From the IMG/VR virus record IMGVR_UViG_3300045988_122766: a stretch of DNA of 40,283 nt; one strand, written 5' to 3'. Under the pieces are notes generated by a model. It saw only the letters and a list, made by a program, of their open reading frames with translations. It did not search any database and was not told where the DNA came from. A program made the translations under genes and the position numbers. Shown piece after piece: positions 1-40,283 of this stretch. Positions within the stretch are counted from its first letter, which is position 1, and every line of letters starts with the position of its first letter. Source of the DNA: a virus.

Positions 1-30
1 ATAAAAAGTTCGTCAAGATTGTTGACGAAC
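1..30 (-). terminator. Rho-independent terminator inside the att core, reading on the minus strand
   Basis: On the minus strand the 9-bp perfect stem GTTCGTCAA/TTGACGAAC (plus-strand coordinates 8..16 and 22..30), with 5-nt loop, is followed by TTTTTAT (complement of 1..7). The same element is present in the right copy at 40237..40259. This suggests integration at the 3' end or terminator of a leftward-transcribed host gene. Confidence 0.55.
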
Positions 31-54
31 ATTAAATAAACACGAGGATATTAA
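1..54. repeat. Left copy of 54-bp perfect terminal direct repeat (putative attL core; alternatively a circular-contig overlap)
   Basis: Positions 1..54 are identical to 40230..40283. They lie about 150 bp upstream of the integrase gene and are flanked on the inside by tandem 11-mer arm repeats. Confidence 0.85.
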
Positions 55-2375: not shown

Positions 2376-2732
2376 TTAACTAATATCTATGTTCCATTTT
2401 GGGTCTAATATTCCTTTAAATTTTAAATAATACAAAATTAACCTTACACGGTGTATTGTATTGTATTTTAAATCAGAGCTTATACTAAGACATGTTTTTG
2501 AGTATATCGCATTTAAATGTGTCTTAACGGTGATTATTGATATTCCTAGATCGTCAGCAATTTGTTCGTTTGACAAACCGTGCGAAGCAAGTTCAACAAT
2601 TTGTTTTTCTCTGCTTGTGAAATCTTCATAATTTAATAATGGCTGTGTAACTGTTTTATTCTTATAAAGAATGTAAGTATTTAATAGTGTTTCTATATTT
2701 CTATATAATTCTTTTTCCATGAATTTTTCCAT
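2376..2732 (-). CDS. LuxR/GerE-type HTH transcriptional regulator (stand-alone HTH)
   Basis: 118 aa. TSREKQIVELASHGLSNEQIADDLGISIITVKTHLNAIYSK is a canonical LuxR-family C-terminal HTH. Confidence 0.65.
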   Translation of the reverse strand: MEKFMEKELYRNIETLLNTYILYKNKTVTQPLLNYEDFTSREKQIVELASHGLSNEQIADDLGISIITVKTHLNAIYSKTCLSISSDLKYNTIHRVRLILYYLKFKGILDPKWNIDIS

Positions 2733-3865
2733 TATTCACCACCCTTTGCTTTGTTAATGATGTCTAAAATTACAAACACTTGGCAATTTATATTACATTT
2801 TTGCGCATTTGCAAACACACAAGTTTCACAATTCCTTTGTTGGTAATTCTTAATCTCATCAAGTGCTTGTTTGTATTTTGAGTTTTCGGCATTTAGGTCT
2901 TTAAAAACTATGGCTCTTATTTTGTCAGACAATTTTCCATTGTTTCCAAAGGCTATTTCTCTTTTCAATTCTTCGCATTCTTGCTCCTTAGCTTGGAGTT
3001 CTTTTGCTTGTTCATCAATAATCAATTTTATTTGCTCGTGTAATTCTAAATAAGATAATCTTTCATCTTTATCAAGAATACCTTTTTTAATAAATTCAAT
3101 TCCGTATTTTGAATTATCATTTATAACAGCTTGAACTTTTTTAACTACGTCTGTTTCAATTCTATAAAGTTCATAATATGATTTCCATTTATCGCACTCT
3201 TGCTCTTTGGCTTTTCTTTTTGAACGTTCAAAATCTAAATCTGAACTTAGTCTTTTGTTTTCTTCCTTTAGTTGTGAAAATTGTTCAAATTCTTTTGCTG
3301 TAATTCGTTCTGGGTTTTCTACGTTATTTATAAACTCTGCAAAGTCTTTTTGTGTTGTGTAGTTTGGTTTTTCTATTCCTAATTTTTCTGCAAAATGATT
3401 AATAGTATTTTGCAAAAATGCAATTTCTTCTTTTGCTTGTGCAAGTTGTTTGAAATAACACCATTCAGAAGGGATATTTTTGCATTTAGTTTCCTTTTTA
3501 TTTATTGGGCTTGCGCAAATGCCATTGTTATAAAACTTGCATTCGATTCCGTCTATTGTTGTTTTGTTTGTGTTTTCGTCTACTTCTCTTATTATTTTTG
3601 GGAAGATGTTTCCAAGATGAGCCGTTAGAACTGTTGCTGTTAAATTTTTAATATTGTAATCAACACCTATTTTTAAAGAAATGGCATATTCATAACTGCC
3701 GTAATGTTTTGGGTTTAAATTATATCCAAAATTTTGAATAGTATGTATATTGTTAGATGTGTTGATAGATACGTTTTCGGGCGGTTGAACATCTACGGCA
3801 ATTTGCGATAGAATATTATATATGTCTTGTAGCACTTGTTTTTGTCGTGGTATATTATCTAACAT
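2732..3865 (-). CDS. Hypothetical coiled-coil protein with Cys clusters
   Basis: 377 aa with a long K/E-rich coiled-coil centre. Cys-rich segments include CKFYNNGICASPINKKETKCKN and C-terminal CETCVFANAQKCNINC. Confidence 0.5.
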   Translation of the reverse strand: MLDNIPRQKQVLQDIYNILSQIAVDVQPPENVSINTSNNIHTIQNFGYNLNPKHYGSYEYAISLKIGVDYNIKNLTATVLTAHLGNIFPKIIREVDENTNKTTIDGIECKFYNNGICASPINKKETKCKNIPSEWCYFKQLAQAKEEIAFLQNTINHFAEKLGIEKPNYTTQKDFAEFINNVENPERITAKEFEQFSQLKEENKRLSSDLDFERSKRKAKEQECDKWKSYYELYRIETDVVKKVQAVINDNSKYGIEFIKKGILDKDERLSYLELHEQIKLIIDEQAKELQAKEQECEELKREIAFGNNGKLSDKIRAIVFKDLNAENSKYKQALDEIKNYQQRNCETCVFANAQKCNINCQVFVILDIINKAKGGE

Positions 3866-4481
3866 TGTTTACTCCTGTTATCTGTTCAAGTATGTAACGT
3901 CCTAATTCTGGAATTACGCAATTTCTCAAGGCTTGTCTTGTATTTACACCTTTGAAAAGTTCTTTCGGTATGTCGTCATAACCGTATCTTTTTTTTAGTT
4001 TAGTGGGCTTATCTTTTATTTTCCAAAAATCCGCGTCTTGGAATTCTGCTGAAAGAATAAAATCTGAACTCCAAAAATAATGACGGCAAATAGAAAAGCT
4101 CGGCTGTATTAGTGGGGTGTAATATGGAATTACATTTTCTATTACCCATTTGATTTTTGCGTGATGTTGTAAAAGAATTATTTCTTCGTACAAAGACATT
4201 GACGGGTATTTAATTCTGTTTTGATATTTACCACCAAGTTGGTTTGTGAAATTTAGCCTGCTATGTGTTTGACAAGGTGGTGAACTCCAGATGAAATCGA
4301 ATTTATTAAAATTTTCTAGTAAATATTGATGTGCGTCACCAATAATAACTTTATCCTTCGGAAATTTGTAGCTATAAATTTTAGCAATTTTTTCATCTAT
4401 TTCGACGGCTGTAACTTCGTGATTTTCGCCCCATAAAGAACGATTACCGCCAATTCCGCAATAAAGATTAAGGATTTTCAT
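3855..4481 (-). CDS. DNA (cytosine-5)-methyltransferase, compact orphan
   Basis: Start taken at the internal ATG (MKILNLYCGIGG), which has an AAGGAAA ribosome-binding site. Motif I is LYCGIGG, motif IV is SSPPCQ, motif VI is WVIENV, and motif X is like QALRNCV. Only about 208 aa, with a very short target-recognition region. No restriction-endonuclease partner is evident. Confidence 0.75.
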   Translation of the reverse strand: MKILNLYCGIGGNRSLWGENHEVTAVEIDEKIAKIYSYKFPKDKVIIGDAHQYLLENFNKFDFIWSSPPCQTHSRLNFTNQLGGKYQNRIKYPSMSLYEEIILLQHHAKIKWVIENVIPYYTPLIQPSFSICRHYFWSSDFILSAEFQDADFWKIKDKPTKLKKRYGYDDIPKELFKGVNTRQALRNCVIPELGRYILEQITGVNNVR

Positions 4482-4945
4482 TTGCACGTTTCCTTTTCTT
4501 TTCTTTTCTTTTCTTTTCGGTCCTCGTTTATCATCATTGCAAATTTCAAAGGACAAAAACAATCTCTACAAATTTTTGTACCTCTTTGATAAAATGGATC
4601 ATCTACTAGAAGTCCGTAACAGTATGAATTGATTCTGTCACTACATTCGGGGTATTTATCACGATAGCGCTCAATTTTTAACTTTTTGTTTTTTATCGAA
4701 GTTTTGATATTATCTTGTAATGTTTTTAATTTATCAGTAACATAGCTACCTAAGCCAATAAACAATAAGGGGCAAAAAATACTTACAAGACAACAAAAAC
4801 TTAAAAGTGGGTTACTTGAGTTAGAATCTTTCTGTAAAAGCACAGCAGATACAACGATACTAAGCATGCTTAGAAAAACTGTAACGGTTAGGCAAATATT
4901 TTCTATTGGAAGTTTTATAAAGATTTTTGTTAGTGATTCTTTCAT
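4478..4945 (-). CDS. Hypothetical membrane protein (2 TM helices) with Cys-rich, K/E-rich C-terminus
   Basis: 155 aa. Hydrophobic helices near residues 20-40 and 48-68, followed by CxxC-type Cys pairs. Its stop overlaps the methyltransferase start (ATGA). Confidence 0.5.
   Translation of the reverse strand: MKESLTKIFIKLPIENICLTVTVFLSMLSIVVSAVLLQKDSNSSNPLLSFCCLVSIFCPLLFIGLGSYVTDKLKTLQDNIKTSIKNKKLKIERYRDKYPECSDRINSYCYGLLVDDPFYQRGTKICRDCFCPLKFAMMINEDRKEKKRKEKETCK
4494..4518. repeat. Pentanucleotide simple-sequence repeat (TTTTC)5, i.e. (GAAAA)5 on the coding strand
   Basis: Five perfect units plus one imperfect unit, 13-37 nt upstream of the methyltransferase ATG and inside the 3' end of the upstream membrane-protein gene. 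Confidence 0.9.
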
Positions 4946-4969
4946 TTGTTCAATCTTTCATTTGTTCAA
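4938..4969. repeat. 16-bp tandem duplication TCTTTCATTTGTTCAA x2 covering a start codon
   Basis: Two perfect copies. On the minus strand each contains ATGAAAGA, so the initiation region of the 4478..4945 gene is duplicated. Confidence 0.85.
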
Positions 4970-5242
4970 TCTTTTTTTTTGTTGCTTTACACAAAAGGTA
5001 CTAGATATTATTTATCCGTGCGCTGTACCTTTTGTGTCGGGCTGGTTAATTAGTGGTCTTAGTGTCACAACCCAGCTATGCCGTACCTAATGCGCCAAGC
5101 GTCTGATATAGGCTTTATTATGTTGTCTTTCCAACTGTCATTAGTTCTTTGTCTGTGTTAGTGCTAGTGAACTAAGACTTTCCCCCACAATCGGTAATCT
5201 CGGCTCTCGTGGGTTCAGAGTACGCCGTACACGCTTTATTAA

Positions 5243-5596
5243 TTACTTTAGGTTGTAGTGAGATTTTGCAATCTCTAAAGCTAATGTATCTTCCATTTCT
5301 TCACGTTGTGGAGTTGACAGATTTTCAAAATCTAATCTATTCATTTTCATTTCTGCTTGAATTGTTTTTGTTGGAAGTGGTAAACGTATTTGAATTGTTA
5401 CAACGTCGTATTCATCTGCAATTACATTCCACTTGAAAGCTAAACGAGGGCAAATGAAGAATTTTTCTAGTTCGCTAACTCTAGCTTGCAACTTTCTATT
5501 TTCTGATAGTAACTCGTCAACAGTGTGTATTTGTGTGATTTTGTTTTCTTCTGAAACTTTAATCTGAGCATTTTGTAGCATTAGACACCTCATCAA
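5243..5596 (-). CDS. Hypothetical coiled-coil protein
   Basis: 117-aa ORF. It overlaps the upstream ORF by 38 nt in a different frame. Confidence 0.35.
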   Translation of the reverse strand: MMRCLMLQNAQIKVSEENKITQIHTVDELLSENRKLQARVSELEKFFICPRLAFKWNVIADEYDVVTIQIRLPLPTKTIQAEMKMNRLDFENLSTPQREEMEDTLALEIAKSHYNLK

Positions 5597-5933
5597 CTGC
5601 GTTATTTCTTTTACAGAAGGTTACGCAATAATGTTCTTCATCAAACTTTTTAAGTTCTTCTTTTAGCTTTTCGTTTTCATCACTTAATGCGCTTACTTTT
5701 TTGTTAGCTTCTTCCAAGTCGATTTGTAAAACTGAAATTTCATTATTTAGTTCAGCTCGTTTTTGAATGTTTTTTCTTATTATATCAGCTTGATTAGCTG
5801 AAATAGTTTCGGCTTTTTTCCTTTTTTCAAGCTGTTTTTCTAAGTCTTTGATTACTCTGTTTATAAGACTACTTTGTATATCTGTAAGGAGTCTGTATGC
5901 TTTTAACTTTTTTTTATTAAATATGTCAAACAT
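5559..5933 (-). CDS. Hypothetical coiled-coil protein
   Basis: Start placed at the internal ATG (MFDIFNKK), which has an AGAGG ribosome-binding site. Heptad-like K/E/L-rich sequence. Confidence 0.45.
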   Translation of the reverse strand: MFDIFNKKKLKAYRLLTDIQSSLINRVIKDLEKQLEKRKKAETISANQADIIRKNIQKRAELNNEISVLQIDLEEANKKVSALSDENEKLKEELKKFDEEHYCVTFCKRNNAVDEVSNATKCSD

Positions 5934-6017
5934 TTTTTGTACCTCTTGATTTTGCTTTTTTGTGATTTTGATATATCGAATGATAAACATTCGATATATC
6001 GTTTTATTATCTTTTGA

Positions 6018-6845
6018 TTAGATATCTTTTAAAATTAAAAGATTTTCTTTGTCTTGTAGGTTATCAGAAATGTATTTAATTTCATCTTTGATAGCGTGCT
6101 CAATTTCGATTTCGTAATTTGGAATTTGCAATAAAATTGCTGGTCTATCGTAATCGTCTTTTGTAATTTGAAGTTCAATATCAAATGTGTAATTGTCTGT
6201 GCCAGCTTTTACGTACGGCATAGTACACTTAAAATTTGTTGGAAGTGTAATTTCTTCGGTTGTACCTTCTCTAGCGCCCGATTGAATCATAAATTGACAA
6301 GTTACACCTTCTTCAAGTTCACCGTCTTCATTGAAAATAGGTTGGCTTTGCATTCTTGCGGTTTTTGCAATTCTGATTGTTGAAAGTTTTGTATAAACAT
6401 TTTTGAAATCAACAATTGACGGTTTTAATCTTTGTAACAGCAACAAAAATGAATTATGGTCGAATAATTTATTTTTTGCGCCCGACAACGCTTCAAACTG
6501 TTCAGAGTAAATTCTCTCAAACGTACAAAATCCTTCGTGTTTGTCATCATCTGCACAGAATTTAGATTCATTGATACCAACTTGAACAGTTGCAAAATTG
6601 CCGTTCTCATTGTTTCTGCGTCTTAATTCTTCCTTGATAAAACTTACAAAAGACTCTCTAGAGTGTACTGTTGTTGACGGCACTGTAGCTCTAGAGCTCT
6701 CATTAAGTTTATATTCTGCGTTTGCGTCACTGTAAATTAGTTCTTTTTCTTCTTGTGTATAAGTATTTTGAACCCTTGTTATACTTGTTAAAGGTCTAAG
6801 GTCTTTTTTAAACAATTGTTCTAAGAATTTTAATAATGCTTCCAT
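6018..6845 (-). CDS. Hypothetical protein (early region)
   Basis: 275-aa ORF with a clean start. No recognisable motif. Confidence 0.5.
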   Translation of the reverse strand: MEALLKFLEQLFKKDLRPLTSITRVQNTYTQEEKELIYSDANAEYKLNESSRATVPSTTVHSRESFVSFIKEELRRRNNENGNFATVQVGINESKFCADDDKHEGFCTFERIYSEQFEALSGAKNKLFDHNSFLLLLQRLKPSIVDFKNVYTKLSTIRIAKTARMQSQPIFNEDGELEEGVTCQFMIQSGAREGTTEEITLPTNFKCTMPYVKAGTDNYTFDIELQITKDDYDRPAILLQIPNYEIEIEHAIKDEIKYISDNLQDKENLLILKDI

Positions 6846-11468: not shown

Positions 11469-11538
11469 ATGCAAAAAATAAAATTTAAAAAAAATCGAAC
11501 GGCTGAAACACAAACTACATTTATTTTTTTAATCGGTC

Positions 11539-11579
11539 GATAATCGGACGATAAACAATCGGTAAAACGTCCGATTATC
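11539..11579. repeat. GATAATC-N4-GATAAAC phased repeat plus the distal inverted copy GATTATC, within a 12-bp inverted repeat
   Basis: CGATAATCGGACG...CGTCCGATTATC is a perfect 12-bp inverted repeat. GATAATC at 11539 and GATAAAC at 11550 are 11 bp apart. AATCGG occurs three times nearby. Confidence 0.8.
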
Positions 11580-13410: not shown

Positions 13411-14753
13411 TGCAAACTCATTATGAACTAGAACTACCTCAAATTCTAAACATACCGCCTAAACTTTATCCGATATTCACAAAGTTTAAACAACACCGAT
13501 TTATTCTATTACACGGCGGTCGTGGCGGTGCTAAATCTCACAGTGTTGCAAGATTACTACTTTACATTGCGGAACATTATAAAGTACGCATATGTTGCGG
13601 TCGTGAAACTCAAAACACCATTGAAGACTCCGTTTACAAAATCTTTATGGGAGTTATCAGAGATAATAATCTGAACTTCTACGAAAGAAATAATAAAATC
13701 TACCACAGGCTTACGGGTTCTGAAATAGTATTCAGAGGATTTAGACAATCGGGTAACGTAAACATTAAAGGTTTGGAAGACTTCGACATTCTTTGGATAG
13801 ACGAAGCAGAAGCAATTACGGAAGAAACATTAGATATCATTATTCCAACAATCCGTAAAGCTGGTTCTAAACTAATATTCACAATGAACCGCAAGCTAAG
13901 ACGTGACCCTGTTTATACGGAAATGGTTAACAAAGAAGAAAATTGTTTAATCATCAAAATCAACTATTACGAAAACCCTTATTGTTCAGCTGAACTAATC
14001 GAAGAAGCTGAAAAAATGAAGGTTAAAAATCCTAAAAAGTACAAGCACGTTTACGAAGGTGAACCAGAGGAAGATTCCGAGTTGATGTTATTCAGCGCTG
14101 ACAAGCTGGATTTAATCAAAAAAGTTAAGATTTACCCAGAACGCATTGAACCATTTAGAAGTATGGCTGTTGATTTATCTGGCGCTGGTGGTGACTTCTG
14201 CGAATGTTCAATTGTAGACCAAGTAATGTCAAGCAAGTACAAAGTGTCAGACATTATCGAATGGCAGATTGCAGATACAGACGTAACTGTCGGTAAAATC
14301 ATCAATCTTTACAAGATGTTTGAACCCGATATCTTAACCTTAGACGCTGACGGTATGGGATATCCGATTTATTGTTCAGTATCAAAAGCCGTTGAAAATT
14401 GCATTGCCTTTCACGGTGCAGGTAAATCCAATCGTGAAAACTGTGCAAATCAAAGGGCAGACGGTTACATAACTCTGCAAGAGTACGTAGATAATCAGTT
14501 TATAATCATTCCGCAAGATAAATGCAGAAATCAATTAGAAACGATTGAAAAAAGATATCAAACGAACGGTGGCAAGATTGTCATTATCCCTAAAAAGGAA
14601 TATCGAGACAAATACGGCGAGTCACCCGATACTGCGGACAGCGTAATGATGAACATTTACTCAATCAATTACAACAAATTTATGAGTAGAAAACAATCTT
14701 ACGGTTTTGAGAATTATGAATATTCTATGGAAGAATACAGCGTTTATGATTAA
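13410..14753 (+). CDS. terL: Terminase large subunit
   Basis: 447 aa. Walker A motif LLHGGRGGAKS, plus a downstream Walker B-like DILWIDEAE. The C-terminal half is nuclease-sized. Confidence 0.88.
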   Translation: MQTHYELELPQILNIPPKLYPIFTKFKQHRFILLHGGRGGAKSHSVARLLLYIAEHYKVRICCGRETQNTIEDSVYKIFMGVIRDNNLNFYERNNKIYHRLTGSEIVFRGFRQSGNVNIKGLEDFDILWIDEAEAITEETLDIIIPTIRKAGSKLIFTMNRKLRRDPVYTEMVNKEENCLIIKINYYENPYCSAELIEEAEKMKVKNPKKYKHVYEGEPEEDSELMLFSADKLDLIKKVKIYPERIEPFRSMAVDLSGAGGDFCECSIVDQVMSSKYKVSDIIEWQIADTDVTVGKIINLYKMFEPDILTLDADGMGYPIYCSVSKAVENCIAFHGAGKSNRENCANQRADGYITLQEYVDNQFIIIPQDKCRNQLETIEKRYQTNGGKIVIIPKKEYRDKYGESPDTADSVMMNIYSINYNKFMSRKQSYGFENYEYSMEEYSVYD

Positions 14754-14756
14754 CGC

Positions 14757-14786
14757 TCGATAATCAAACGATTAACAGAAAGGAAA
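14757..14786. repeat. Phased GATAATC/GATTAAC 11-bp repeat cluster overlapping the late-gene ribosome-binding site
   Basis: CGATAATCAAACGATTAACAGAAAGGAAAC. The CGAT units are 11 bp apart. Confidence 0.8.
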
Positions 14787-14793
14787 CTAAATT

Positions 14794-15009
14794 ATGTGTA
14801 TCGGTTCAGGCGGTGGCGGTTCTACTAAAGTTGTTCAAGCGCCCGTAGAAACAATTGCTACACCAACAATAGCAAATGCAAACGTACAAAAGGCTGGCAG
14901 TGACGCACGTCGACAAGCGTCGGCAGCTGCAAATCAAAATATAAAAACATCTGCAAACGGTCTTAATGACTTTGCAAATACAAATAAAAAGAAATTATTA
15001 GGTGAATAA
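14794..15009 (+). CDS. Hypothetical small protein
   Basis: 71-aa Gly/Ala-rich ORF between the large terminase and the portal. AGAAAGGAAAC ribosome-binding site. Confidence 0.45.
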   Translation: MCIGSGGGGSTKVVQAPVETIATPTIANANVQKAGSDARRQASAAANQNIKTSANGLNDFANTNKKKLLGE

Positions 15010-19252: not shown

Positions 19253-19285
19253 AAACGGTGGGCTTTTGCTCACCGTTTGCTTATC
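19253..19285 (+). terminator. Terminator-like hairpin
   Basis: AAACGGTGGGC-TTTT-GCTCACCGTTT with one G.U pair, then a T-rich stretch. Confidence 0.5.
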
Positions 19286-19311
19286 AAACGATTAACAAAC
19301 GATAAACAAAA
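19281..19311. repeat. Phased 11-bp repeat cluster (CTTATC / GATTAAC / GATAAAC)
   Basis: TTATCAAACGATTAACAAACGATAAACAAAA. The CGAT units at 19289 and 19300 are 11 bp apart. Confidence 0.8.
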
Positions 19312-19350
19312 TTACATTAATGCTCATTAAGTGATTATTAATGTAATTTT
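19308..19350. promoter_or_regulatory. 13-14-bp perfect inverted repeat AAATTACATTAAT-N15-ATTAATGTAATTT
   Basis: Seen directly. It lies immediately upstream of the tail tubular A ribosome-binding site. A long stem-loop at the RNA level. Confidence 0.8.
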
Positions 19351-23188: not shown

Positions 23189-25369
23189 ATGGTACGTATA
23201 GATAAAGCTCAAAGAGAAGTTAATACTCAAGCGATACCACATCAATACGTGGACGGTGGTAATACAAGAGGTGCATTTGGTGAAAATGTTGCGCTTGCAA
23301 CTCAAAAAGCTGGTGAGGATTTAGAAGACATTGGTATTATGCTTGATAAAATTCAAGCACAGAATGAACGTGCAAATGTTGTTAAGCTACAAAATGATGT
23401 TTACCAACAGTGGGAAGAACCTAATCTTTATTCTAAAGACGGTTATTTTAACCAATTTGGTCGTAATGCAGCTGGCAAGTCTGCAGAAGTATTAGCCAAT
23501 TATGACGCTTGGGTTGAACAACGTAAAAAAGAATTAGGTATAAATTCTAAACGTGCAAATGTTGTTTTTGCTGAAATGAACAACAGAAACCGTGAGAGAA
23601 TTTCTAGGGCGATTCTTGCACACGATTTGCAACAAACGCAAGAAACAGAAAAAACAGAACTTAGCCAGCTTTGCAAAAACTATGACACACAGGGTGTTTG
23701 GGATAGAAACAGTGATGAACAGTTTGAATATAATCTATCAGAAAAGATTAAAGCTGTTAAAAATTATGGTGTCGTTGCAAACCTTGATAAAACGCAAATT
23801 AAAGCATTGATAGATAAAAGTAATGACGAATATCTTAATGGTGTACTGACAGCCTTACTTACTGACGGAAATTATCAACGCGCAAGTGTAATTTTAGAAA
23901 ATAATAAAAGTTTATTGACTCCAGATAATTATATTAAATTCACGAAAGAAATTAAAAACTTTTCTGATGAGGATTTTGCAAGACAATTTGCTACTGATTT
24001 AATAAACAAGGGTTATACAGTAGAACAAGCACAAAATCTTATTGATCAAGAAACGAACTTTGAGATGTGGCAAAAGAAAAATAATCTTTATCATAACTTA
24101 TATAATACAAAAAAACACAATGAAGAAACTGTTCAAAATGAGATTTTGACAAACGAATTTAATAACCTATTATCTGGTAAATATGACATTGCTACATATA
24201 CACCGCCAAATAGTTTAGAACCTATAAACCAACAAAAATTAATTAAGATGAAACAAGATTTACTTGAAGGTGGCGGAATTAAAACAGACCCTAGAGTTTA
24301 TACTGGTTTCTCTATGGCTATGCTTACTAACGCAGAAGAGTTTTCAAAAATTAATTTTGACTTATATCAAAATGTACTAGAACCTAAAGATATTTTAAAA
24401 TTCAAACAAGCACAGGAAAGAATTAGACAACATGGTTATAGTTCAGTTACCCCTGATGATGAATTTGTATTGAATGCAGCTAAACAATATGGCTGGTTCA
24501 CAGATAAAAATGCTATGGCAAGTGCAATTGAAGCGTCAATTCAGACAGAAGAAGCTAGATATGGCAAGCAATACAGTAAAGATGATTTAAGACAAAGAGG
24601 TGAAAAATACGCTAGTTACTACGGCTTAAGAGGTAATAAAAACGAACGTAGTGCTCTAGATGTTATTAATGACAATATGTCAAAAGAGTTTATGGTTCGT
24701 GTTCAACAAGGTTTAAAGGCATACGAAAATAAACACGGCATAAATTCAATGACACCTGAACAATTTAGAACTATGGTTAATAGAATTGCGGGCGAAACAA
24801 AAACTAAAGGTGTACAACTTAAGTATGAAACTTTAAGAAAAACCAATATTCAATCTCAAATAAAAGAGTCTCCTAATTTAATTAATTTTAGACATTCTGA
24901 AATTCCAGATATTGAAAAAGCATTAGGTTTTAAACTTAATATCTCATCAACAACAAGAGAGCCTAACGGAAGTTACAAATCAAAACATTCAGAAGGCTTG
25001 GCAATGGATATAGGCTACACATTAGCTAATGGTCGTAAGATGTCAACGCAACAAAAGCTAACACTTGTAGGAAGAACCTTAGCGTCTGATAAAGTTGCTA
25101 AAATTGCAATTTCATCAGCAGACCCCGACGGCAAAATGATTATGCAAGCATACGGCAAAAGATTTGCGTCAAAAATTCAAGATATGAACCAAAAGGACGC
25201 TAACGGTAAAACTCGAGACCAAAATTTAAACACAAATCATACAAATCATTTACACATCTCTTTTAAAACAGGGCAACAAACCCCTCAAATAAAAGAAGGT
25301 ACGATTATTAAAAACAAACAATCAGGCGAAAGAATGATATTGAAAGGTGGAATATGGCAAGCAATTTAA
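23189..25369 (+). CDS. Internal virion protein with C-terminal M15/LAS-family zinc peptidase (cell-wall hydrolase) domain
   Basis: 726 aa. SKHSEGLAMDIG (24980..25015) matches the SxHxxGxAxD motif of VanY/M15 peptidases. HLH follows 80 residues later (25247..25255). Position and size (against 747 aa) resemble T7 gp15. Confidence 0.5.
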   Translation: MVRIDKAQREVNTQAIPHQYVDGGNTRGAFGENVALATQKAGEDLEDIGIMLDKIQAQNERANVVKLQNDVYQQWEEPNLYSKDGYFNQFGRNAAGKSAEVLANYDAWVEQRKKELGINSKRANVVFAEMNNRNRERISRAILAHDLQQTQETEKTELSQLCKNYDTQGVWDRNSDEQFEYNLSEKIKAVKNYGVVANLDKTQIKALIDKSNDEYLNGVLTALLTDGNYQRASVILENNKSLLTPDNYIKFTKEIKNFSDEDFARQFATDLINKGYTVEQAQNLIDQETNFEMWQKKNNLYHNLYNTKKHNEETVQNEILTNEFNNLLSGKYDIATYTPPNSLEPINQQKLIKMKQDLLEGGGIKTDPRVYTGFSMAMLTNAEEFSKINFDLYQNVLEPKDILKFKQAQERIRQHGYSSVTPDDEFVLNAAKQYGWFTDKNAMASAIEASIQTEEARYGKQYSKDDLRQRGEKYASYYGLRGNKNERSALDVINDNMSKEFMVRVQQGLKAYENKHGINSMTPEQFRTMVNRIAGETKTKGVQLKYETLRKTNIQSQIKESPNLINFRHSEIPDIEKALGFKLNISSTTREPNGSYKSKHSEGLAMDIGYTLANGRKMSTQQKLTLVGRTLASDKVAKIAISSADPDGKMIMQAYGKRFASKIQDMNQKDANGKTRDQNLNTNHTNHLHISFKTGQQTPQIKEGTIIKNKQSGERMILKGGIWQAI

Positions 25370-39981: not shown

Positions 39982-40007
39982 TATCGTTTGATTATCGAAC
40001 GATAAAC
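39979..40007. repeat. Phased repeat cluster (TAGTATC) GATTATC-N4-GATAAAC after the last late gene
   Basis: TAGTATCGTTTGATTATCGAACGATAAACAAA. TTATCGAACGATAA is nearly palindromic. Confidence 0.8.
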
Positions 40008-40040
40008 AAATATTTTAAAATGGGTTGTCATTTTTTCTTT

Positions 40041-40070: not shown

Positions 40071-40145
40071 ATGCAGATAAAAGAAAATAAAAGAGATTAA
40101 AAGAAATTAAAACCGACTTGAATTTTATTTCATTTTTTATAACAC

Positions 40146-40167
40146 AGTGCGGTAAAAGTGCGGTAAG
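40146..40167. repeat. Tandem 11-bp direct repeat AGTGCGGTAAA/AGTGCGGTAAG (candidate arm-type sites, P arm)
   Basis: Same 11-mer pair as at 185..206, in the same orientation, about 65 bp inside the right-hand core repeat. Confidence 0.6.
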
Positions 40168-40229
40168 AACTTTTAATATTTATTAGCAGGCGAACAACAT
40201 AAAAATAGCCAAAATATAGATTTTGCATA

Positions 40230-40283
40230 ATAAAAAGTTCGTCAAGATTGTTGACGAACATTAAATAAACACGAGGATATTAA
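40230..40283. repeat. Right copy of 54-bp terminal direct repeat (putative attR core)
   Basis: Exact match to 1..54. The window ends exactly at the end of the repeat. Confidence 0.85.

Follow-up and report, generated by a model that had tools for sequence, protein, structure and literature searches.

Simple sequence repeats (SSRs) that switch DNA methyltransferases are well documented in host-adapted pathogens, where the enzymes are of Type III or Type I and the gene itself contains the repeat; there is hardly any record of such switching for C5 enzymes borne by phages or in uncultivated gut lineages. In Campylobacter jejuni and Helicobacter pylori, homopolymer tracts merge two annotated open reading frames (ORFs) of restriction-modification loci, and tract length decides whether one polypeptide or two is produced from the neighbouring frames. 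The phasevarions, which include modA, modB and modD of Neisseria and Haemophilus, modH of H. pylori, modS of S. suis and the mod genes with a pentanucleotide GCACA[n] repeat, carry a short tandem repeat, with a unit length not divisible by three, which slips by whole units; the unit number varies by strain in near-identical DNA, and the downstream product is a DNA methyltransferase (PMC5909438). In that survey a tract was taken as slippable when it held at least three units, for units of at least 3 nt (PMC5909438), and the hypermutability of phase-variable SSRs has been quoted as 100-10,000-fold (PMC11868660). A locus that resembles these systems was recognised in the window, by which is meant the whole 40,283-nt stretch analysed here, from IMG/VR virus record IMGVR_UViG_3300045988_122766. 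It is a perfect (GAAAA)5 tract at the junction of a small membrane-protein gene and a compact C5-methyltransferase-like gene of a prophage, and an original prediction made from the sequence had proposed it as a candidate phase-variable switch.

The variation in unit number (n) that such a switch presupposes is real. Versions with three, four and five units occur on otherwise identical prophages, one pair of which also has an identical host flank, and an allelic series of this kind is the signature that has been used elsewhere as evidence of phase variation. What did not hold is the ON/OFF design of a phasevarion, as no allele truncates the methyltransferase. The main consequence of a change in unit number appears instead to be a choice between separate proteins and a membrane-protein::methyltransferase fusion, which had not been foreseen. 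The best-supported reading, to which we assign a probability of about 70%, is that the tract is a young, incidental and truly hypermutable microsatellite whose states change the gene products. The features of the junction, by window position, are:

4494..4518, minus strand: perfect GAAAA x5 (TTTTC on the plus strand), the slippage-prone tract, encoding part of the membrane-protein tail that ends ...DRKEKKRKEKETCK before the stop
4489..4493, minus strand: imperfect sixth unit GGAAA (TTTCC on the plus strand), forming with the preceding A's the Shine-Dalgarno (SD) sequence of the methyltransferase
4478..4945, minus strand: membrane-protein gene of 155 amino acids (aa), two predicted transmembrane (TM) helices, TGA stop at 4480-4478
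3855..4481, minus strand: compact C5-cytosine-methyltransferase-like gene, 208 aa (Pfam PF00145, PHROG 363)
4482..4562, minus strand: methyltransferase frame, open 5' of the ATG and through the repeat; read-through in frame at unit number 1, 4 or 7
4468..4470, minus strand: TAA stop for the membrane ORF at unit number 0, 3, 6 or 9, with termination 11-13 nt inside the methyltransferase ORF (simulated alleles, and the natural three-unit allele P0046 in contig L015)

The anatomy is as originally described. The minus-strand junction reads, 5' to 3', ...ATGATGATAAACGAGGACC (GAAAA)5 GGAAA CGTGCAA ATGA AAATCC..., and Tandem Repeats Finder (TRF) returns the tract with a score of 53, period 5, 6.0 copies and 96% matches, that is, five perfect units and one imperfect. 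Counted from the A of the methyltransferase ATG, the perfect units span the stretch 13-37 nt upstream, inside the 3' coding end of the preceding gene. The two minus-strand ORFs (membrane, 4945..4478; methyltransferase, 4481..3855) overlap in the ATGA at 4481-4478, the TG being common to the TGA of the first and the ATG of the second. The ribosome-binding site is untouched by the repeat units: GGAAA and the A's before it make up the SD AAAAGGAAA, with its AGGA core at 4494-4491 and 9 nt between core and ATG, and an SD of the AAAGGA type at similar spacing precedes 17 of the 23 genes of the window. Relative to the membrane ORF, the methyltransferase is read in the -1 frame, which stays open from 4562 through the tract and appears in the ORF listing as a 235-aa ORF with a TTG start (4562..3855). 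No other SSR in the 40-kb window has a unit of 4-8 nt repeated four or more times. When the window was simulated 2000 times under a second-order Markov model, even four perfect pentanucleotide copies never arose (0/2000), and the tract is not a product of chance.

To follow the natural alleles, unit numbers n = 0-10 were simulated in the window background and each product was looked up by exact sequence. The exact 155-aa protein of the window is present in about 40 index blocks (21-22 contigs were read), and its 90% cluster also includes methyltransferases and a 361-aa protein, P0023, in which the membrane protein runs in frame into the methyltransferase via ...DRKEKKRKGNVQ-MKIL... and which is identical to the simulated four-unit product. 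Another 155-aa protein, P0046, with the tail DRKEKKRKRANENP, is the simulated three-unit product, and its DNA allele is carried by contig L015. The collection contains no exact match to the window-background products for n = 0, 1, 2, 6, 7, 8, 9 or 10. The five-unit allele is by far the most abundant, in 40-41 index blocks, as against three contigs with n = 4 and one with n = 3. The SD and ATG of the methyltransferase are identical in all alleles. Pairwise comparison of the DNA gave the following:

L012 (n = 4) against the window: 7,086 nt, 0 mismatches, one 5-nt gap
L015 (n = 3) against the window: 4,927 nt, 0 mismatches, one 10-nt gap
L022 (n = 4, ENA ERZ27311591, 75,780-bp contig) against L024 (n = 5, ENA ERZ19661938, 75,822-bp contig): 20,468 nt, about 5.5 kb of it host, 0 mismatches, one 5-nt gap
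L023 (n = 4, 11,580 bp) against L028 (n = 5, 11,585 bp): full length, 0 mismatches, one 5-nt gap

In about 76 kb of pairwise-compared sequence, two or more tract events thus stand against zero substitutions. As a rough estimate, tract events are in excess by some three orders of magnitude per nucleotide, which lies inside the 100-10,000-fold range of PMC11868660. Because an n = 5 prophage, L026, with nine single-nucleotide polymorphisms (SNPs) in 15 kb, falls outside the zero-SNP group, n = 5 is the ancestral state, and n = 4 and n = 3 are contractions derived from it. We infer that whole 5-nt units are lost by replication slippage, far faster than nearby DNA gains substitutions, and that the process is reversible. 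The expectation that gain or loss of a unit would frameshift the tail of the upstream ORF is borne out by the natural three- and four-unit alleles in these otherwise identical prophages.

Since each 5-nt unit shifts the reading frame and the tract lies just 5' of the SD and ATG, the unit number would set one of three translational arrangements. With two or five units (or eight), the membrane ORF would stop on the ATGA and two proteins would be made, through termination-reinitiation coupling together with the SD. With four units (also one or seven), the ribosome would read through in frame, the four-unit product being a 361-aa fusion with the methyltransferase on the C-terminal end of the two-TM protein, a position predicted to be cytoplasmic. 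With three units (also zero, six or nine), the membrane ORF would stop at the TAA at 4470-4468, and at n = 3 two proteins would again result, the first with an altered 9-residue tail. Among the predicted and observed ORFs, the products compared are a 155-aa protein with the tail ...EKETCK, a 155-aa protein with the tail ...KRANENP and the 361-aa fusion; the alleles, their frames and the fusion ORF are seen directly. The methyltransferase is expected to be still translated separately at n = 3 and n = 5, whereas at n = 4 much or all of it may be the 361-aa protein, anchored by two TM helices with its catalytic domain in the cytoplasm. If its own SD works in all alleles, as seems probable, the main phenotypic change would be between a free and a membrane-tethered enzyme, accompanied by changes in the tail of the membrane protein.

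Other routes by which the junction might control the methyltransferase were also considered. For n = 2-5, the folding of the junction RNA was no better than that of shuffles (z -0.06 to -0.44) and did not change with the allele, and an RNA-structure switch was rejected on these grounds; a weak hairpin that pairs the SD with methyltransferase codons 3-7 is present in all alleles. The scan of positions 3700-5700 for promoters and terminators gave nothing beyond shuffled expectation, with no sign of a separate promoter for the methyltransferase cassette.

The comparison of repeat length among related prophages, which had been suggested as a check, gives a divided answer, with three, four and five units in clonal prophages and a fixed (GAAAA)2 in more distant ones. 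The ten clusters of homologous membrane proteins, at 66-91% identity, all have the short tail DRKEKE..., and the DNA of L001, L002, L010, L011 and L021 reads GACC GAAAA GAAAA GGAAAC, that is, two units. In three relatives without a methyltransferase (L018-L020), the membrane gene is followed directly by a homologue of the 377-aa ORF of the window (2732-3865), with the junction (GAAAA)2GGAAAATAAAAATGA. The imperfect GGAAA unit is kept in all relatives and serves the next gene in those lacking the methyltransferase. The two-unit motif is thus old and stable, encoding the end of a lysine/glutamate-rich (K/E-rich) tail and the SD of the next gene, and the methyltransferase is an inserted accessory cassette, because L018-L020 have the same (GAAAA)2GGAAA junction without it. 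Given the invariant (GAAAA)2 of the relatives, the tract of the window looks like a recent expansion in one clone and not like a conserved contingency locus. It would have arisen by expansion of the conserved (GAAAA)2GGAAA, five units being in frame with the ancestral two and adding five residues. When three- and five-unit products were predicted in six common n = 2 backgrounds, exact look-up in the 15-billion-protein collection returned none of them; the instability is peculiar to the expanded tract. Contigs of GTDB representatives gave nothing by protein pattern, nor by a DNA pattern allowing 1-7 units, and the DNA-pattern scan of IMG/VR returned only two n = 2 contigs, both already known.

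The junction and the cassette vary among the relatives in other ways. In L021 the deletion of one A of CAAATG (1 nt) makes the membrane ORF end 11-13 nt inside the methyltransferase, and in P0031, P0035 and P0041 the stop of the membrane ORF is lost. In the lineage of L002 (IMGVR_UViG_3300045988_174211) the methyltransferase is frameshifted into pieces of 100 and 114 aa (P0013/P0014), and this split gene, at 4001-4623, is found on at least eight contigs. The methyltransferase cassette appears dispensable.

The enzyme itself belongs to a large phage family. Its match to Pfam PF00145 (45.1 bits, against a cutoff of 22) covers residues 1-111 only, that is, profile positions 1-104 of 324, and motifs I (GIGGNR), IV (SPPCQ) and VI (ENV) and an X-like motif (LRNCVIPELG) are present. 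Thirty family members share invariant GxGGNR, SPPC, ENV, RH.FW (VIII-like) and LRN..P..G motifs, the last of them X-like and conserved as LRN.V.P..G, with G9, G11, G12, P68, P69, C70, E115, N116 and V117 invariant and PCP in place of PCQ in some. The AlphaFold2 (AF2) model of the 208-aa protein has a pLDDT of 84, and its best Foldseek matches are DNMT2, M.HaeIII, DNMT3A/B, DNMT1 and M.HhaI (E 5e-7 to 5e-5, query TM score 0.39-0.59). Profile match, motifs I/IV/VI and predicted fold all point to a C5-methyltransferase. A large target-recognition domain (TRD) is absent, and 208 aa leave no room for a normal one, so the protein is modelled as a compact C5-methyltransferase-like enzyme without it. 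That it is a truncated methyltransferase was rejected, since the entire family is of 195-215 aa; at least 8000 clusters of relatives of 195-215 aa were found, with nearly all of the family in this size range and many members on Caudoviricetes contigs.

The methyltransferase had been called an orphan, and it is indeed solitary: both of its neighbours also adjoin each other in phages that lack it, so that neither of them is its cognate restriction enzyme, and neither has a nuclease match in PADLOC, Pfam or NCBIfam. In these respects it resembles the solitary phage C5 methyltransferases associated with anti-restriction, a large family of PF00145-positive proteins of about 200 aa from phages and prophages with no adjacent restriction partner. 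Characterised C5 enzymes are much longer (M.HhaI 327 aa, M.HaeIII about 330 aa).

Set beside the described systems, the locus shares part of each. As at SSR contingency loci, the tract is of slippable length (five perfect units and one imperfect), its unit number differs between near-identical genomes, and the gene product is altered, at the level of predicted and observed ORFs. In the phasevarions, however, the mod ORF itself contains the repeat and is turned ON or OFF by truncation, whereas here the repeat occupies the 3' end of the preceding gene, outside both the ORF and the promoter of the methyltransferase, and the methyltransferase is never truncated. Their enzymes are N6-adenine Type III or Type I, and the present one is a solitary, compact C5 type on a prophage; their tracts are conserved and often long (4-48 units), and this one is apparently a recent five-unit expansion in one clone, not conserved among relatives. 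The ORF-merging restriction-modification loci also differ, in that one ancestral gene is split there, while here two unrelated genes are joined and the separate state is ancestral and common. The ATGA arrangement is the classic overlap of translational coupling in phage operons, with the SD inside the upstream gene in both the ancestral and the five-unit arrangements; what distinguishes this junction is that its geometry is mutable in 5-nt steps, and that the relatives vary (ATGA, an overlap of about 13 nt, stop loss).

The most economical reading of these data is that of an incidental contingency-like locus whose out-of-frame states are tolerated. Tolerance would follow from the accessory nature of the methyltransferase cassette, and from the relatives, which show other overlap geometries (L021, and the stop losses P0031, P0035 and P0041) and a split methyltransferase (P0013/P0014). 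There is as yet no indication of selection maintaining the tract as a switch, and such a role is unproven. Several points weigh against the incidental, hypermutable tract. The alleles are known from consensus assemblies and not from reads, and the fusion is known as an ORF. The four-unit contigs are ENA ERZ27311591, Logan SRR35867472 and one more, possibly from one or few samples, and, their independence being uncertain, the data firmly call for no more than two mutational events. If slippage were truly reversible, some gain alleles should have arisen, and exact product look-up for n = 6-10 found none. The predominance of the in-frame n = 5 allele could also come from purifying selection on the frame or from simple ancestry.

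The strongest competitor, which we nevertheless consider unlikely, is a selected phase-variation switch, in which the tract is maintained because reversible, stochastic changes in unit number alter methyltransferase activity, through a free as opposed to a tethered or inactive enzyme, or through coupled as opposed to uncoupled translation, so that the population is hedged for anti-restriction or epigenetic regulation. A 5-nt unit, not a multiple of three, inside coding DNA is typical of contingency loci, and essentially no expanded trimer tracts are found in mod genes in the phasevarion survey (PMC5909438). The out-of-frame alleles are the consensus in several assemblies with identical flanks of 5-20 kb, which fits the quoted hypermutability (PMC11868660), the loss of one unit leads to a clean in-frame fusion and not to truncation, and what is targeted, a DNA methyltransferase, is the classic effector of phasevarions. 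On the other hand, the ATG and SD of the methyltransferase stay unchanged whatever the unit number, and the two units fixed in every relative at 66-91% identity argue that this is not a conserved, evolved switch. The observed changes are contractions only, with off-frame alleles rare, and five units are short, so that low switching rates would be expected. A frameshifted methyltransferase, and its loss, are tolerated in relatives, and the operon diverges from a CI-like repressor gene, so that the methyltransferase may be silent in lysogens. Eighty distant loci of the methyltransferase family are without a comparable SSR: between -150 and +650 of the start, none has an SSR with a unit of 4-9 nt and at least three copies, and the frequency of homopolymers in that stretch matches the background (about 0.23 per kb, against 0.27 per kb). 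An association between SSRs and the compact methyltransferase across its family was rejected, as no enrichment was found at these loci.

A working three-state frame switch in an uncultivated gut Melainabacteria prophage, toggling the methyltransferase between a free cytoplasmic and a membrane-tethered form by way of the two-TM protein, is a somewhat more doubtful proposition still. Were it true, tethering would alter which DNA is methylated (incoming, replicating or host), there would be heritable, reversible heterogeneity in anti-restriction protection or in lysogen epigenetics, and phase variation would act through gene fusion and localisation in place of ON/OFF truncation. If methylation changes, the allele that fuses the membrane protein to the methyltransferase, where a phasevarion would switch it off, would offer a separate means of diversifying methylation in phage or lysogen; if nothing changes, the locus still cleanly records how a conserved two-unit coding motif may turn into a hypermutable tract.

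The remaining explanations fare much worse than the incidental microsatellite and the selected switch. That the repeat is a static coding feature of ordinary mutability, merely encoding a K/E-rich tail and an A/G-rich ribosome-binding region, agrees with the unchanged (GAAAA)2GGAAA of the relatives whatever gene comes next, and with the five-unit allele, by far the commonest, being in frame with the two-unit one; it is nevertheless very improbable, as three, four and five units with zero substitutions over 5-20 kb, two of them out of frame, are incompatible with ordinary stability. That the three- and four-unit versions are assembler errors at a low-complexity tract is hardly credible, for although such purine tracts can be error-prone in some pipelines and the independence of the ENA and Logan records is uncertain, the differences are of exactly one and two whole units (5 and 10 nt), the tract of 25-30 nt is below read length, the four-unit allele was recovered both in ENA (k119 assembly) and by Logan, whose pipelines differ, and the record name of the three-unit contig gives a coverage of about 18x. 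A programmed -1 ribosomal frameshift, by which lysyl-tRNA slippage on GAA-AAG in the five-unit allele would give some fusion with no DNA change, deserves equally little weight: the -1 frame is open from 4562 into the methyltransferase and the tract has two A-AAG contexts, but the canonical X-XXY-YYZ heptamer, a stimulatory structure (the junction folds being no better than shuffles) and an SD-like stimulator upstream at the right distance are all absent.

The prophage nature of the element, also part of the original prediction, holds on the evidence of an integrase, terminal direct repeats and host flanks. The first 54 nt of the window (1-54) recur without change as a direct repeat at 40230-40283. 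Where public contigs extend further, their match to the window breaks off at about position 1, and differing host genes come beyond the junction (L024-L026), namely flagellar hook genes, a RadA-like gene or FliE/FliF. Because identity among prophages in three host contexts stops at about position 1, the 54-nt repeat is probably the att core. Genes for a tyrosine integrase (PF00589), a CI-like repressor (Phage_CI_repr/HTH) and terminase subunits (Terminase_2/3) are present at the loci; with the 54-nt repeats and the host flanks, they indicate that the window is a complete integrated temperate phage bounded by the att repeat. A metagenome-assembled genome of a 'Candidatus Melainabacteria bacterium' carries a related prophage on a 528-kb contig, and megablast of window positions 3000-6000 against GenBank phages gave no match. 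The divergence of the operon with the membrane and methyltransferase genes from the CI-like repressor suggests that both genes are expressed in lytic development, and would be more in keeping with anti-restriction in the lytic cycle than with epigenetic control of the lysogen.

The upstream membrane protein has hydrophobic segments at about residues 17-37 and 47-67 and a basic C-terminal part with conserved cysteines (C101, C109, C126, C129 and C131), and by the positive-inside rule its C-terminus should be cytoplasmic. Searches of the 155-aa protein against Pfam, PHROG and PADLOC gave no family match, and NCBIfam gave a single weak match, below threshold. Its AF2 model is a helical hairpin with an unreliable Cys-rich part (pLDDT 36-50), too weak for a fold search. 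At the other end of the gene lies a further repeat:

4938..4974, minus strand: perfect 16-nt tandem duplication, TCTTTCATTTGTTCAA x2.3, spanning the membrane-gene start codon; lineage-specific

This duplication creates a mini-ORF of three codons (ATG AAA GAT TGA) that ends 5 nt before the real ATG of the membrane gene. It is present in all contigs with n = 3, 4 and 5, L015 starting inside it, and is single-copy in relatives of about 90% identity; it is a second replication-slippage or duplication scar in the membrane gene.

A number of further observations concern the surroundings of these genes. Upstream of the membrane gene, a non-coding gap of about 300 nt (4946-5242) has a GC of 0.39-0.46, against about 0.30, and holds a perfect 13-bp hairpin, ACACAAAAGGTAC...GTACCTTTTGTGT (fold z-score -2.1), which is kept in the relatives L001 and L002 and has no terminator-like T run; Rfam gave no match in 4800-5400. 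Downstream of the membrane gene, the cargo differs among the relatives without a methyltransferase (L018 2949-4824; L019 2955-3548), in which the homologue of the 377-aa protein comes in versions of 288 and 197 aa and L018 adds a PAPS-reductase-like gene; this stretch of the early operon appears to be a hot spot for cassette exchange. Within the methyltransferase gene, an A8 homopolymer (T8 on the plus strand, 3989-3996) lies in the codons for KLKKR and is invariant across the clonal contigs compared. Two distant compact methyltransferases, L086 and L087, have a G9 homopolymer at +54..+62 of the ORF, in W-G-G codons and of equal length in both, which could be a classical frameshift-prone tract. 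A family member of 228 aa and 55% identity, P0064, carries a C-terminal hydrophobic extension, MKTAIIFLVIAIFIICSL..., and may represent read-through into a small membrane ORF, thus another joining of a methyltransferase to a membrane segment.

Elsewhere in the prophage, the 54-nt terminal repeats contain a perfect hairpin, GTTCGTCAA...TTGACGAAC, and just inside the prophage ends lie 46-nt near-repeats (163-208 and 40124-40169), each with a doubled AGTGCGGTAAA, which may be arm-type binding sites of the integrase. A recurrent motif, ATCAAACGATTAACA...GATAAACA, with TTATCGTTTGA-like half-sites, precedes several genes and is at times followed by GAAAGGAAA and ATG; it is found at 1649-1681, 5997-6020, 11532-11557, 14744-14794, 19264-19314, 29875-29900, 34434-34484 and 39983-40008, and is a candidate phage promoter or operator. 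The structural module includes a single ORF of 3024 aa (25354-34428), which is very large for a 40-kb phage.

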